Shown here: in pieces, positions 15,178-30,031 of the stretch
Layout of the letters: each line of letters starts with the position of its first letter
Numbering within the stretch: position 1 is the stretch's first letter
Origin: Gemmatimonas sp.
GTDB taxonomy: Bacteria; Gemmatimonadota; Gemmatimonadetes; Gemmatimonadales; Gemmatimonadaceae
Assembly: GCA_965279375.1 (NCBI GenBank)
Contig: OZ257156.1
Location: forward strand, 4,352,001 to 4,416,000
Reading direction: 5' to 3'
Length of the DNA: 64,000 nt
Program-made: the position numbers and the translations under genes
The notes under the pieces: generated by a model
The model's input: only the letters and a program-made list of their open reading frames with translations
Told to the model about the DNA's origin: nothing
Databases searched by the model: none

Positions 15178-17190
15178 CTACCCTGCAAGTTCGGGCAAGT
15201 CGCGGAAGTTTGCCAGCGCCTCGGGGTTGGCCAGCGCGTCGATGTTTCGCACCGTCCGCCCGTGAATCACGTCCCGAACGGCCAGTTCGGTGATCTTGCC
15301 ACTGATCGTACGAGGGATATCGGCGACCTCCACGATGAGCCGTGGGACATGATGCGGGCTGGCGTGGGTCCGGATCCGCTGGCGAATCGTCGCACGCAAC
15401 GCCTCGTCCAGTGCCCCCGCGGCCCGCATGCGCACAAAAAGTACGATCCGCGTGTCCGCCGCCGCCCCCTGCCCCACCGTCTGCTCCACTACGATCGACT
15501 CCAGCACCTCGGGGATCTGCTCCACCTGCCGGTAAAGCTCCGCCGTCCCGATCCGCACGCCACCTGGGTTGAGCGTCGCATCGCTGCGTCCGTGAATGAC
15601 CAGCCCGTCCTCCGGCGTCAGCTCGGCCCAGTCACCGTGCCGCCACACCCCGGCAAAGTGCTCGAAGTACGCCGCCCGGTAGAGTCGCCCGTCCGGGTCG
15701 TTCCAGAAGGCCACCGGCATGCTGGGGAATGGCCGAGTGCACACCAGCTCGCCCGGAGCATTCCGCAACGGCTGCCCCGCGTCGTCGAAAATCTCCACCG
15801 CCATCCCGAGCCCGCGCATCTGCAGCGCGCCACGATAAACCGGCGCCGTGGGATCGCCCAGCGCAAAGCAGCTGACGATATCGGTACCGCCGGAGATGCT
15901 CGACAGGCGCGCAGTAGTCGAGACGTGCTGCTGCACGTAGTCGTAGCTGTGCTCTGCCAAGGGACTGCCGGTGGACAGAATCGCACGCAGCGCGCTCAGG
16001 TCGAACCGATCGCGCGGCGCGATCCCCTCTTTCTCCAGCATCGCGAGATACTTGGCGCTCGTGCCGAAGACGTTCACCCGCTCCTCTTCGGCCATGCGCC
16101 ACAAAATCGTTGGGTCGGGGGCCAGCGGCGCGCCATCGTACAGCACAATGGTGGCGCCGACCGCGAGTCCCGACACCAGCCAGTTCCACATCATCCAGCC
16201 GCAGGTGGTGAAGTAGAACAACACATCGTCGCGATGGAGATCGGTGTGCAACGCCAGCTCCTTCCAGTGCTGCAGCAGCGTTCCACCGGCGCCGTGCACC
16301 ATGCACTTGGGGAGCCCCGTCGTCCCGGACGAATACAGCACGTACAGCGGATGATCGAACGGCAGGCGCGTGAACTGCGGCTCACGATGCTCGGCGTGCG
16401 CCGCGAGCACGTGATCAAAGCGCGACGCCGAGGGGATGTCGCGGATGGCCGGATCGGCGTCGAGGTACGGCACCACCCACACGGCACGCAGCGACGGGAT
16501 CGAGTCGGCGATTTCCCGAATGCGCGTCAGACAGTCGATGCGCTTCCCCGCGTACCAGTAGCCGTCGGCGGCGATGAGCACGGTCGGCGCGATCTGCCCG
16601 AACCGGTCGAGCACACCCTTGGTGCCGAAGTCGGGAGAGCAGGACGACCAGAGCGCGCCGATGGACGACGCCGCGAGCATGGCGATGACCGCTTCGGGCA
16701 GGTTGGGGAGATAGCCCGCCACGCGGTCGCCCGGGCCCACACCTTGCTCGCGCAGCGCCGCGGCAGTCTGCGCGACGCGAGTGGCCAGCTCCCCCCACGT
16801 CAGCCGTGGCTGCGCGCCATGCTCGTTCCACGCGACGATCGCCACACCGTCATCACGACGGCGCAGGAGATGCTCTGCGAAGCTGAGGCGCGTCCCGGTG
16901 AACCAGCGCGGGCCCAACTCGGCGTCAGGGGGCGCCATGCGGTTGCCGCCCATGAGCACTTCCGCCCAAGGGGCGTCGGCAGGGCCCGGGCCGTCGGCCT
17001 GAATATCCGCGGCACGCCACACCGCCGACCAGAACTCCGCCGGATGCTTGACGGACCAACGCTGAAGCGCGTGGGAGTCATTCTTGTCTGCACCGATGAC
17101 GCCGGCCGCCTGCAACTCACGCCGAAACTGCGTCAGGCGCGCGCGTTCGATCTCAGCGTTGCTCGGCGACCAGATCGGCGTGGCACTCAC
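15178..17190 (-). CDS. Acetoacetate--CoA ligase (acetoacetyl-CoA synthetase)
   Basis: WSSCSPDFG, YSSGTTGLPKCMVHGAGG, FYFTTCGWMMWNWL, SISGGTDIVSCF, GRSDATLNPGGVRIGTAE. GTG start overlapping the upstream stop. Confidence 0.93.
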   Translation of the reverse strand: MSATPIWSPSNAEIERARLTQFRRELQAAGVIGADKNDSHALQRWSVKHPAEFWSAVWRAADIQADGPGPADAPWAEVLMGGNRMAPPDAELGPRWFTGTRLSFAEHLLRRRDDGVAIVAWNEHGAQPRLTWGELATRVAQTAAALREQGVGPGDRVAGYLPNLPEAVIAMLAASSIGALWSSCSPDFGTKGVLDRFGQIAPTVLIAADGYWYAGKRIDCLTRIREIADSIPSLRAVWVVPYLDADPAIRDIPSASRFDHVLAAHAEHREPQFTRLPFDHPLYVLYSSGTTGLPKCMVHGAGGTLLQHWKELALHTDLHRDDVLFYFTTCGWMMWNWLVSGLAVGATIVLYDGAPLAPDPTILWRMAEEERVNVFGTSAKYLAMLEKEGIAPRDRFDLSALRAILSTGSPLAEHSYDYVQQHVSTTARLSSISGGTDIVSCFALGDPTAPVYRGALQMRGLGMAVEIFDDAGQPLRNAPGELVCTRPFPSMPVAFWNDPDGRLYRAAYFEHFAGVWRHGDWAELTPEDGLVIHGRSDATLNPGGVRIGTAELYRQVEQIPEVLESIVVEQTVGQGAAADTRIVLFVRMRAAGALDEALRATIRQRIRTHASPHHVPRLIVEVADIPRTISGKITELAVRDVIHGRTVRNIDALANPEALANFRDLPELAG

Positions 17191-17507
17191 GCGACGCCGT
17201 CCTGCCCGGATGCAGTTCGCGCCAGCGCGACCGAGGCGCACGCCGCGCCATGGGCTTCACAGTACCACCCATGCCGATCGTGAAAGACCAGATGCGGCGC
17301 ATCGGTCGGCCCCAGCTTCACGCGCACGAGATGCTGCACGGACGTGGACTCGCCGACGACCTTACGCGGATCGAGCACGTCAATCGTCGGCTTGACCGGG
17401 AACAGGTCGAACTGACTGGGCGCAAGCGGCACGCCGTCGGCAGGCGACGAGCGCTTGGACGTTCGCGTGGGAGCGCGGGGTTTCGAGGGGCGTTTGGCGT
17501 CGGACAT
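17187..17507 (-). CDS. Hypothetical protein with His/Cys cluster (HDRHGWYCEAHGAAC)
   Basis: 106-aa ORF whose stop overlaps the acetoacetate-CoA ligase start. Confidence 0.6.
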   Translation of the reverse strand: MSDAKRPSKPRAPTRTSKRSSPADGVPLAPSQFDLFPVKPTIDVLDPRKVVGESTSVQHLVRVKLGPTDAPHLVFHDRHGWYCEAHGAACASVALARTASGQDGVA

Positions 17508-17539
17508 CGGCAGGTCACGAATCCTCGCCAGTCGACGCG

Positions 17540-18178
17540 CTACGCGCCAGCGCTTCCTTTCGGCGCGTCCGGCTGCCAGTGCAGCTCCCACTCGCAGAAC
17601 GCGTCTCCTTCGATGCAGCAGCGCACGTGACGGACGCGCGACCCTTCGCCACCCGCCAACTGGATGGCCTGCCGAAGTCCGCCGGTCAGTCGATTGCAGA
17701 AAATGCGCGTGATGGGATCGAAGCCGACGAGTCGCAGAACCGCGCGCCCGGCATCGTCTTCGACGACTTCCATGTCGCCCGGATGGTAGTAGAGACGAAA
17801 GAGCGACACGCTCTGCGTGAGGAACTCGCGTGGCGTCGGCTTCCGGAGAATGCCACCGTAAAGCTGCACGCCCAGCGAGTCGATGGCGTACGCGCCCGCT
17901 TCATCTGCCCATGCATCGCTTCCCGGACGTCCGCCGGCGGGCACCTCCTCGCTCGACGGAAACAGCGAGCCGGCCTCGCGCCAACACTCGACCACGTGGT
18001 GATACGGGATCTCGTCGGTCGCGGCGGCCGCTTCGATGGCACGACGCGTTTCGGGGGCAAGCGACGCCAGCACCGATGCCACCGCGTCATCCCCCAAGCG
18101 AGCAGCCACGAAGGCCAGTGTGCTGCGCACCGTCGAGCCTTTCGCCGATTGCTCGCGATTCCCGGTGAACAGGCTCAC
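17540..18178 (-). CDS. Stand-alone V4R/H-NOX-like small-molecule-binding protein
   Basis: C-terminal FCNRLTGGL...HVRCCIEGDAFCEWELHW resembles the V4R motif. GTGA overlap with the upstream ligase. Confidence 0.65.
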   Translation of the reverse strand: MSLFTGNREQSAKGSTVRSTLAFVAARLGDDAVASVLASLAPETRRAIEAAAATDEIPYHHVVECWREAGSLFPSSEEVPAGGRPGSDAWADEAGAYAIDSLGVQLYGGILRKPTPREFLTQSVSLFRLYYHPGDMEVVEDDAGRAVLRLVGFDPITRIFCNRLTGGLRQAIQLAGGEGSRVRHVRCCIEGDAFCEWELHWQPDAPKGSAGA

Positions 18179-28952: not shown

Positions 28953-29995
28953 CGGACAGCCCGGCTTTCAGGAGCTGCGCCCGAAGATCCGCGGGCGACA
29001 AAGCGCACCGGCAGCAGTCGCGTCGCACTCACACGTTGCGGTGACTTTTCGATGAGCTGCAGCAGCAGTCGCGCAGCGCGTGCGCCGAGTTCGCGCGCAG
29101 GAATGGCGACGGTCGAGAGTTCGGGCGTGACGTAGCGCGCGAGTTCGATGTCGTCACAGCCAACCAACGAGAGGTCCTGCGGCAGCCTGAGACCCACGGT
29201 TAGGCACTGCTTTATTGCCCCGATCGCCATCAGGTCGTTCGCACAGAACACCGCCGTCGGCTGGGATGCCGTCGACTGCGACGCCGTGAGCAGCTGACGC
29301 ATGGCTTCGCGCCCACCGCTGACGGTGGCCGGCGCACGCCGCAGCCGCTGCGACGTGAGCGTGACTCCCGCTTCTCGAAGTCGCACGACGAAGCCTCGCT
29401 CACGCATGCGAAAGGCATGCACATCCGACGCAGGGCCAATGAACGCAACCTCGCGATGCCCGAACGCGAGCAGATGCTCGGCGGCGAGACGTCCCGCTGC
29501 GACGGCGTCCGTCGCGATACCGGGCCATCGCTCCGACGGCTCATCGATGAGCACGACGTTGACACCGGCGAGTGCCTCCGCCGGCAGCAAGCCCGCCCCG
29601 ACGGCATCGAGCAGGACGCCATCGATCTGCCGTGCGCGCAGCGTTTCGAGATGCTGCATGACTCCACGGGCGGACTGATCGCACAGCAGCACCGCGTAGC
29701 CAGCCTCGGCGGCGACCCGTTCCGCGCCGGCGACCACATCCGCGACGAACGGATTGCGCACGTCCGGCACGATCACCCCGAGCGCGAACGAGCGCCGTCG
29801 TGCGAGTGAGCGCGCCACGACGTTGGGCTTGTAGCCCAGTTCGGCGGCGGCGTCGAGCACACGCTGACGCGTCGCCGCGGCAACGCGGGCGCGAGGGTGC
29901 TGCGAAAGGACGAGCGACGCGGTGGGCTGGGAGACACCGGCGCGGGCAGCGACGTCATGGACAGTGACTCGCCGCCCCGAGGTAGGAGGGGCCAT
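28949..29995 (-). CDS. LacI/GalR-family transcriptional regulator
   Basis: HTH VTVHDVAARAGVSQPTAS, hinge LGYKPNVVARSL, sensor domain PTAVFCANDLMAIGA, SLVGCDDI. Confidence 0.95.
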   Translation of the reverse strand: MAPPTSGRRVTVHDVAARAGVSQPTASLVLSQHPRARVAAATRQRVLDAAAELGYKPNVVARSLARRRSFALGVIVPDVRNPFVADVVAGAERVAAEAGYAVLLCDQSARGVMQHLETLRARQIDGVLLDAVGAGLLPAEALAGVNVVLIDEPSERWPGIATDAVAAGRLAAEHLLAFGHREVAFIGPASDVHAFRMRERGFVVRLREAGVTLTSQRLRRAPATVSGGREAMRQLLTASQSTASQPTAVFCANDLMAIGAIKQCLTVGLRLPQDLSLVGCDDIELARYVTPELSTVAIPARELGARAARLLLQLIEKSPQRVSATRLLPVRFVARGSSGAAPESRAVR

Positions 29996-30013
29996 CGCGG
30001 AACAAACTGATGC

Positions 30014-30031
30014 TGCAAATACGTATTGGCA
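30014..30031. promoter_or_regulatory. Candidate LacI-family operator TGCAAATACGTATTGGCA
   Basis: Near-perfect 18-bp palindrome with perfect core AATACGTATT and central CG, 18 bp upstream of the LacI gene start, AT-rich in a GC-rich background. Confidence 0.65.

Follow-up and report, generated by a model that had tools for sequence, protein, structure and literature searches.

In a 64,000-nucleotide stretch of a Gemmatimonas sp. chromosome (assembly GCA_965279375.1, contig OZ257156.1, forward-strand positions 4,352,001 to 4,416,000; hereafter the window), we identified a conserved predicted operon of ten genes that runs from a LacI-family repressor to a protein of the H-NOX/V4R fold (17540-29995) and is accompanied by a putative LacI-type operator at 30014-30031. 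From its gene content and its relatives we propose, with a probability of about 70%, that this operon scavenges exogenous (R)-3-hydroxyacyl esters or oligomers of the poly(3-hydroxybutyrate) (PHB) type from other cells, using a CoA route that is independent of 3-hydroxybutyrate (3HB) dehydrogenase (Bdh) in a host that apparently does not produce the polymer. A preliminary description of the locus had suggested polyester-oligomer scavenging with CoA activation and entry through an (R)-specific enoyl-CoA hydratase, PhaJ. Comparison with relatives lends strong support to this core idea, while we infer the substrate from the kin of the operon's esterase, from PhaZ7 and from the glyoxylate shunt.

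The source genome (G000) is a complete 5.31-Mb chromosome. The twelve minus-strand open reading frames of the preliminary description are all present in the order given there, as are its six 4-bp ATGA/GTGA overlaps at 28952, 27825, 26044, 25529, 18178 and 17190; the remaining intergenic gaps measure 6, 114, 6 (3 if a TTG start is used), 8 and 32 bp. Its family labels were also borne out (LacI, ACP_syn_III, two AMP-binding ligases, SSF, MaoC, TonB receptor and Esterase_PHB), including that of acetoacetate-CoA ligase, whose model score is above the cut-off. Three of its statements had to be corrected, the V4R label among them, which is taken up further below. The locus was said to begin at 30031, where there is no start codon; LacI begins at ATG 29995, and 30014-30031 is the palindromic putative operator. 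Nor does the conserved unit comprise twelve genes: the last two, the His/Cys gene and the acetoacetate-CoA ligase, are found in relatives apart from the KAS III-like gene (KAS), and the twelve-gene operon was rejected for them. We end the unit at the V4R gene because the acetoacetate ligase tracks HPPD and because a KAS-less genome, G050, keeps the His/Cys gene and the ligase.

The preliminary description had proposed a gene-neighbourhood comparison, and when this was run most of the gene order was found to recur in 30 Gemmatimonadota loci, far beyond chance (Table 1). These are the loci that extend to the distal genes among the 51 left when 4 duplicates were dropped from 55 fetched. Within the family Gemmatimonadaceae, 17 of 151 genomes carry KAS.

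Table 1. Features of the operon and of the two genes behind it, with positions in the window and presence in the 30 Gemmatimonadota loci; presence of the esterase and of ACL2 is partly a product of the selection rule, and some gene absences are truncations.
Feature	Position	Strand	Loci (of 30)	Remarks
Palindromic LacI-type operator (putative)	30014..30031	.		overlaps likely promoter
LacI-family repressor, 348 aa	28949..29995	-	29	ATG 29995; PF00356 + PF13377
KAS III-fold enzyme (KAS), remodelled active site	27822..28952	-	30	proposed acyltransferase / oligomer thiolase
Acyl-CoA synthetase 1 (ACL1), long-chain FadD11-like	26041..27825	-	23	proposed oligomer-CoA ligase; PF00501 + PF23562
Small membrane protein (SMP)	25526..26044	-	21	4 predicted transmembrane segments (hydropathy); accessory partner of SSS transporter
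Sodium:solute symporter (SSS)	24003..25529	-	22	PF00474; proposed monomer / short-oligomer importer
PhaJ-type (R)-specific enoyl-CoA hydratase (MaoC)	23565..23996	-	22	intact D-x-N-P-x-H motif
TonB-dependent receptor (TBDR), clade travelling with KAS	20892..23450	-	28	plug + barrel
Putatively exported type-1 PHB-depolymerase-like esterase	19752..20888	-	30	catalytic domain only; Ser195, Asp271, His342
Acyl-CoA synthetase 2 (ACL2), PRK06839-like clade	18175..19743	-	30	proposed 3-hydroxybutyrate-CoA ligase
H-NOX/V4R-fold protein (DUF2378-like)	17540..18178	-	28	last gene of the conserved unit
His/Cys small protein	17187..17507	-	11	in KAS-less G050; travels with acetoacetate-CoA ligase
Acetoacetate-CoA ligase of tyrosine (homogentisate) locus	15178..17190	-	9	111 of 151 family genomes, vs 17 for KAS

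The putatively exported esterase resembles the enzymes of canonical extracellular PHB degradation in its type-1 catalytic domain. Aligned to 8DAJ, the structure of the PHB depolymerase LtPHBase, it shows the full catalytic triad, the oxyanion motif HGCTQ at 112 and GISAG at 193. LtPHBase is also its nearest solved relative (E 3e-65, against 1e-16 for an acetylxylan esterase and 7e-14 for a feruloyl esterase). The protein ends after the catalytic domain and lacks both linker and substrate-binding domain; a hydrophobic N-terminal leader, judged from hydropathy only, is present on it and on 24 of 31 relatives, several relatives being without one. The accessible part of PMC9601781 describes LtPHBase as a 322-aa enzyme that likewise lacks a substrate-binding domain, is active on PHB and prefers it, and also cuts PLA and PCL; its source, L. 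thermophila, cannot make PHB, which is a further likeness to the host studied here.

It is very unlikely that the operon serves instead to release and degrade hydroxycinnamate (feruloyl/coumaroyl) or acetyl esters of plant polysaccharides. PF10503 does include fungal acetylxylan and feruloyl esterases, and the PDB entries nearest to ACL2 are 8WEU and the feruloyl-CoA synthetase 8WEV, but the esterase is nearer to PHB depolymerase by about 49 orders of magnitude. An enoate would need both a hydratase and a dehydrogenase, of which most loci carry one, and the scanned neighbours of KAS described below yielded no Ech, no demethylase and no recurring glycoside hydrolase. The source genome has no LigB and only a partial 34-bit match to intradiol dioxygenase, so that no protocatechuate ring-cleavage gene is shown there.

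The association between such depolymerases and KAS extends beyond the window. Among the 151 family genomes, 16 have a type-1 esterase of at least 200 bits and 13 of these carry KAS; the other three, one of them G134, a genome flagged as unpublished, are KAS-less, and in these the esterase gene comes immediately after that of the same TonB receptor. Algivirga pacifica has three type-1 depolymerases after KAS and a ligase, one of them with an fn3 linker, and in locus L194 a type-1 depolymerase precedes KAS. In L183 and L169, which are close kin, a homologue of PhaZ7 directly follows KAS (E 7e-102 to 4BVL; 403 bits, cut-off 450). A search for the 3HB-oligomer hydrolase family PF10605 was blank, a result that is uninformative because no control genome gave a match either.

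The host appears to lack both polymer synthesis and the usual 3HB dehydrogenase. The preliminary description had noted that neither Bdh nor phaC lies in the locus; this is confirmed, and neither was found in the whole genome. Searches of the 151 family genomes gave no match to phaC-N (PF07167) and no Bdh over the cut-off, and class III phaC (TIGR01836) was not found in G000. Mobilisation of endogenous PHB was rejected as an explanation because no phaC was found. The canonical 3HB route consists of a type-1 depolymerase, an oligomer hydrolase, BdhA and activation of acetoacetate. Unlike that route, the one proposed here has no BdhA over the cut-off in the 151 genomes, and CoA activation apparently comes before oxidation. 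The PhaJ-type hydratase is a hot-dog fold protein with both D-x-N-P-x-H and HGML; its best PDB matches are 5CPG (E 2e-41) and 1IQ6 (E 8e-27), and the motif is kept in relatives.

Genes for crotonase, 3-hydroxyacyl-CoA dehydrogenase and thiolase are present in G000. In relatives, malate synthase and isocitrate lyase follow the V4R gene (G097), lie inside the operon between SSS and ligase (L093) or are found 4.6 kb from KAS on the other strand (L168). Since glyoxylate-shunt genes stand in or beside these three copies, the end product of the pathway is likely acetyl-CoA. Isocitrate lyase as such occurs in 7 of the 17 KAS-positive and 1 of 6 control genomes, and beside the operon in 1 of 4 checked.

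KAS clusters also occur in other phyla, where most copies pair KAS with a reductase. The neighbours of KAS in 41 non-Gemmatimonadota GTDB loci include a FabG/PhaB-like reductase (32 loci), an ACL2-type ligase (31), SSS (30), an alpha/beta hydrolase, a 520-aa outer-membrane protein and its accompanying lipoprotein (25 each) and, less often, a TonB receptor (12) or a thiolase (6). When 401 Bacteroidota genomes were drawn evenly, KAS turned up in 53; the 20 of them that were fetched, chosen for long contigs, all have reductase and ligase, 19 have a hydrolase, 9 the TBDR, 10 the 520-aa barrel and 2 MaoC, and receptor and barrel never occur together. A motif scan of metagenomes gave 123 matches, with DNA for 80 rows and, after repeats were dropped, 78 distinct loci, all of which encode KAS. 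Of the 45 that are at least 5 kb long, the reductase without MaoC is found in 29, MaoC without the reductase in 5, the two together in 1 and neither in 10; a CoA ligase is found in 28 and a CoA transferase in 8, never both, and a hydrolase in 34. An Asp after the second strand is the NAD signature of such reductases, and all 65 readable sequences (of 67) have it, as read by eye, which suggests that they work in the oxidation direction. Among 171 further same-strand neighbours scanned (of 202 picked, proteins >700 aa being left out), there was no acyl-CoA dehydrogenase, crotonase, phaC or ring-cleavage gene. Given that an (R)-hydratase or (R)-dehydrogenase is present and no acyl-CoA dehydrogenase was found, the pathway would most simply start at (R)-3-hydroxyacyl-CoA.

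This starting point also admits longer (R)-3-hydroxyacyl esters from dead cells, handled by the same CoA logic, for which medium-chain polyhydroxyalkanoate (PHA), rhamnolipid HAA dimers and acyloxyacyl groups of lipid A or ornithine lipids are candidates. PhaJ and the NAD-type reductase fix only the (R)-3-hydroxyacyl level and not the chain length, ACL1 has long-chain FadD11 as its best NCBIfam model (below cut-off), most Bacteroidota copies are without a type-1 PHB depolymerase, and larger solutes suit TonB uptake. We nevertheless consider this substrate class unlikely: two short-chain-specific depolymerase families adjoin KAS, the 171 neighbours include no acyl-CoA dehydrogenase for further rounds of beta-oxidation, and 5 of the 30 Gemmatimonadota loci lack ACL1 and have another ligase.

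Still less probable is some other short hydroxy-acid ester or lactone, such as 4-hydroxybutyrate, butyrolactone, or lactate or caprolactone oligomers. Anaerobic copies use a CoA transferase of the acetyl-CoA hydrolase/transferase family, many of the hydrolases score highest on enol-lactonase models, and PLA and PCL are, as mentioned, cut by LtPHBase (PMC9601781, accessible part). However, the scanned neighbours show no recurring 4-hydroxybutyryl-CoA dehydratase or lactate dehydrogenase, and both PhaJ and the FabG/PhaB-like reductase act on a 3-hydroxy group.

The most constant gene of the operon is the KAS III-like enzyme, which the preliminary description had called atypical and left without a role (residues are numbered here for the 342-aa protein from ATG 28850). 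Its identity to proteins in named Gemmatimonas records is 77-84%; Gemmatimonas phototrophica, Algivirga pacifica and Chondrinema litorale are among the named carriers. Like FabH/KAS III (4DFE, 1HN9; about 33% identity), it has the catalytic Cys and a confidently modelled FabH fold (TM about 0.88), and a fold search with the model returned FabH-like structures only and no characterised member. Alignment to 4DFE and 4RYB shows that Cys119 is kept, whereas the His and Asn of the Cys-His-Asn triad of FabH are replaced by Thr260 and Tyr290. The protein passes PRK09352 by 2 bits and fails TIGR00747. In 47 diverse members Asp88, Cys119, Tyr148, Met150 and Trp236 are invariant (47/47), Thr260 is found in 45 and Tyr290 in 46. 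In an alignment with an HMG-CoA synthase (probability 86%, N-terminal half only, 22% identity), Asp88 falls on the GTE-motif glutamate, which in that enzyme is the general acid/base; unlike HMG-CoA synthase, KAS is without the catalytic His. No ACP or fabD lies nearby, and the canonical fabH sits elsewhere in the source genome. According to the accessible text of PMC2680598, His244 and Asn274 of FabH decarboxylate malonyl-ACP. With these replaced by Thr and Tyr, KAS lacks the residues for decarboxylative condensation; it is conserved and, from the pattern of its residues, probably catalytic, but it is no FabH.

What KAS does is the least certain step of the pathway. We tentatively propose, giving it rather less than an even chance, that it would cleave an oligomer ester with CoA, the 3-hydroxybutyryl unit being handed over to CoA by way of an acyl-Cys intermediate. 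Four lines of argument lead to this idea: only the acyl-transfer machinery plus an acid/base are kept; KAS is accompanied by hydrolases and outer-membrane channels; in the KAS-less G112, SMP-SSS-MaoC-ACL2 are kept but receptor and esterase are not, a set that seems enough for the monomer on its own and suggests a monomer-only version of the system; and PhaZa1 gives a precedent for thiolytic release of 3HB-CoA from PHB. PhaZa1 of Ralstonia eutropha catalyses this release according to the available portion of PMC7147478, but it is intracellular, granule-bound, of a different fold and found in a producer, whereas imported oligomers and a KAS III fold would be involved here.

Known acyltransferases of the KAS III-like kind are biosynthetic. 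CerJ and ChlB3 are KAS III-like enzymes with Cys-borne acyl transfer and a Cys-His-Asp triad, and CerJ makes an O-ester (PMC9573744, in the part accessible to us). They share the thiolase fold and the Cys acyl chemistry with KAS, which unlike them has Tyr rather than His at the Asn position of FabH and sits in catabolic operons. This precedent would fit a biosynthetic cluster in which the ligases and KAS build an ester lipid or small metabolite that the membrane proteins export or recapture. We regard such a cluster as highly improbable, given that there is no ACP, that the regulator is a LacI repressor and the transporters are importers, that the reductases of other phyla are of the NAD type and that the glyoxylate shunt is linked in three loci.

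A sister KAS III of the PRK06840 type, which keeps the two His, stands in place of or beside the Thr/Tyr enzyme in similar clusters, including those of Bacillus and haloarchaea (L048:3023-4207; L156, L160, L193; L123:11977-12972; L127:11980-12990). Both paralogues are found together in L048, L156, L160 and L193, and the two may be paired or interchangeable. Tandem Thr/Tyr KAS genes (42% and 45% identity to the window enzyme) were seen in a version of the cluster with an ABC importer (L139:9236-11239 and L178:369-2372).

Taken in order, the proposed pathway would begin with the putatively exported esterase cutting polymer or long oligomers, either outside the cell or in the periplasm, into which the TonB receptor would take oligomers. 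The symporter and its small membrane partner would then import monomer and short oligomers, and the ligases would form CoA thioesters, with the monomer as the probable substrate of ACL2 and oligomers as that of ACL1. At this point KAS, with its Cys/Asp/Thr/Tyr site, might move 3-hydroxybutyryl units from oligomer esters to CoA. PhaJ would dehydrate (R)-3-hydroxybutyryl-CoA, and the resulting crotonyl-CoA could be taken to acetyl-CoA by the crotonase, 3-hydroxyacyl-CoA dehydrogenase and thiolase of ordinary beta-oxidation that the genome encodes; in other phyla an NAD-type reductase would stand in place of the PhaJ step.

Several observations weigh against the assignment to PHB scavenging. A score above the NF050058 cut-off of 150, such as the 258 bits of the esterase, is undiagnostic because 53 of the 151 family genomes exceed that cut-off, and the activity of LtPHBase on PLA and PCL and the feruloyl-CoA synthetase near ACL2 have been mentioned above. 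Among the 401 Bacteroidota genomes a type-1 depolymerase is found in 8 of 53 KAS-positive vs 15 of 348 KAS-negative ones, a weak association from counts in which kin are not independent; two strong depolymerases are in KAS-negative genomes, and most hydrolases of the Bacteroidota copies resemble PcaD or Bacillus PhaZ at scores below cut-off only. SSS, MaoC and TBDR are absent from 8, 8 and 2 of the 30 Gemmatimonadota loci, some by truncation, and in the operon carriers G109 and G031 only PaaZ-type fusions and no PhaJ orthologue were found. MaoC and reductase, which would be alternatives, co-occur in 2 of the 20 Bacteroidota loci and in Brevibacillus. Finally, G000 has no match to isocitrate lyase or Ccr, so that PHB would be an energy co-substrate there and not a sole carbon source by known routes.

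PhaJ and SSS are thus present, as the preliminary description had it, but neither is obligatory. The SSS gene occurs in 58 of the 151 family genomes (including G134), of which 15 are KAS-positive and 43 KAS-less, and by this distribution the symporter is not specific to the operon. SMP lies directly upstream of SSS in all 20 KAS-less loci examined out of the 43 KAS-less carriers, which makes the two a fixed pair on gene order. Of 12 KAS-linked receptors in named records from outside Gemmatimonadota, 11 have the receptor of the window as their best genome match, but none of 6 from metagenome loci do. ACL2 is likewise the best genome match for the ligases in the Bacillus, Brevibacillus, Chondrinema and Salarchaeum clusters.

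The palindrome at 30014-30031 is likely the operator of the LacI repressor, as its distribution indicates. It is the sole site in the window (0.02 expected by chance) and in the genome, and it is found in 16 of the 17 KAS-positive genomes and in none of six operon-less controls; G134 is an operator-positive genome outside the 17. Of 42 relatives, 32 have the core motif ahead of LacI, frequently directly behind TTGACA. A search for a wider regulon returned the one site in G000, and additional sites in relatives precede LacI or the TonB receptor (4 of 4 checked); two sites in relatives have one mismatch (G053:C83 and G097:C296). A promoter and terminator scan of the locus gave no sigma-70 consensus match and no convincing terminator.

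The protein labelled V4R in the preliminary description has no Pfam match and is better described as a full-length H-NOX/V4R-fold protein resembling DUF2378. Its model (pLDDT 87) matches H-NOX over the full length at a TM of about 0.66, and its atlas neighbours are annotated as DUF2378 (11%) or V4R (12%). Checked for the proximal haem His and the YxSxR motif of H-NOX proteins, it shows no His in the long helix 89-111, and its sole invariant His is 184. It is a likely candidate for a ligand sensor.

In its organisation the operon works like a polysaccharide utilisation locus (PUL) but is none. As in PULs and the Sphingomonad polyethylene glycol (PEG) operon, a receptor, an inner-membrane transporter, a depolymeriser and a local regulator stand together, and the PEG operon, with the TonB receptor PegB and the permease PegD, offers a precedent for TonB uptake of synthetic oligomers (PMC11644497, as far as its accessible text goes). 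Unlike SusC/D PULs, the operon has neither SusD nor glycoside hydrolases, its receptor scores 56 bits on TIGR04056 (cut-off 368), and its proposed substrate is a polyester. The PRK06839/PRK06840 clusters of Bacillus, Brevibacillus and haloarchaea share the ligase clade and MaoC with it and have Liv-type ABC importers and hydrolases; they differ in using the sister KAS with two His kept. We found no characterisation of these clusters in the open full-text literature, nor any account there of the operon, of a TonB-dependent importer of PHB oligomers or of the KAS family, though subscription papers or supplements could hold one. A term search of the accessible text of one review (PMC11893044) found none of six uptake terms, and another (PMC9603655, likewise in its accessible part) treats uptake generically.

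Downstream of the operon lies a tyrosine-catabolic locus, with an aminotransferase, homogentisate dioxygenase and HPPD at 11049-14593 and a ComEA-like HhH gene (14778 to about 15130) between it and the acetoacetate-CoA ligase. The homogentisate pathway yields acetoacetate. In the window, HPPD and homogentisate dioxygenase follow the acetoacetate-CoA ligase, and in 74 of 89 KAS-less genomes with both genes this ligase lies <10 kb from HPPD; one of the 74 is G034, which is flagged as unpublished. By these positions it belongs with the tyrosine-catabolism locus, and it may be co-transcribed with the operon here. At the operon site the KAS-less G050, of the same genus, has LysM, SMP, SSS, His/Cys and acetoacetate ligase genes (L128:9889-11960 being the SMP-SSS pair), a layout that suggests loss of the rest of the operon.

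Further variants and neighbours were noted. The 520-aa outer-membrane protein (L098:13128-14702 and 24 other loci) has no Pfam match and an alginate-export-like lead in the atlas (17% of members). The lipoprotein precedes it, and from copy to copy in Bacteroidota and Ignavibacteria it alternates with the TonB receptor. A Chloroflexota version (L122:15022-18364) combines KAS with a CoA transferase, an SCP2-type thiolase and a DUF35 Zn-ribbon protein, and a secreted NHL-repeat double beta-propeller directly follows KAS in Bacillus/Brevibacillus clusters (L123:12966-14831, L124:12992-14893). One operon subgroup has a 4HBT/PaaI-type thioesterase after V4R (L057:16566-17018; L052; L061). On a single assembly contig (L055 and L068) the first genes of the operon occur twice, in near-identical and inverted copies, which may be a duplication or an assembly artefact. 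On the other side of the operon, a gene resembling cytochrome c peroxidase, whose N-terminal region is long, stands beside a PhoX-like gene at 31022-34551 in the window, upstream of a divergent LysM gene.

On this comparative evidence, the operon appears to be a real, conserved and uncharacterised variant of polymer-utilisation loci, with a well-supported putative assignment to PHB and one potentially new enzyme reaction. PHB is widespread as a storage polymer of bacteria and is sold as a biodegradable plastic, and the operon names candidate parts for its use: the outer-membrane receptor and the symporter, the repressor and its putative operator at a defined site, two ligases and a new type of active site. 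Because KAS is annotated as FabH, its carriers would be missed by screens for BdhA or classical depolymerases. More speculatively, and on odds that we put somewhat short of even, KAS could be a CoA-dependent oligoester thiolase in a widespread TonB-receptor pathway by which non-producers import PHB oligomers and turn their ester bonds directly into 3-hydroxybutyryl-CoA. If so, these non-producers would include Gemmatimonadota, Bacteroidota, Ignavibacteria, Chloroflexota and others, one CoA-ligase reaction would be saved per cleaved bond, and 3-hydroxybutyrate dehydrogenase would be bypassed. KAS would then be the polyester counterpart of the oligosaccharide phosphorylases, and thiolysis would be a new reaction for the thiolase superfamily and a tool for converting PHA waste into CoA-activated chiral building blocks. 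The operon itself would represent an undescribed way to recycle PHB as a natural bioplastic.

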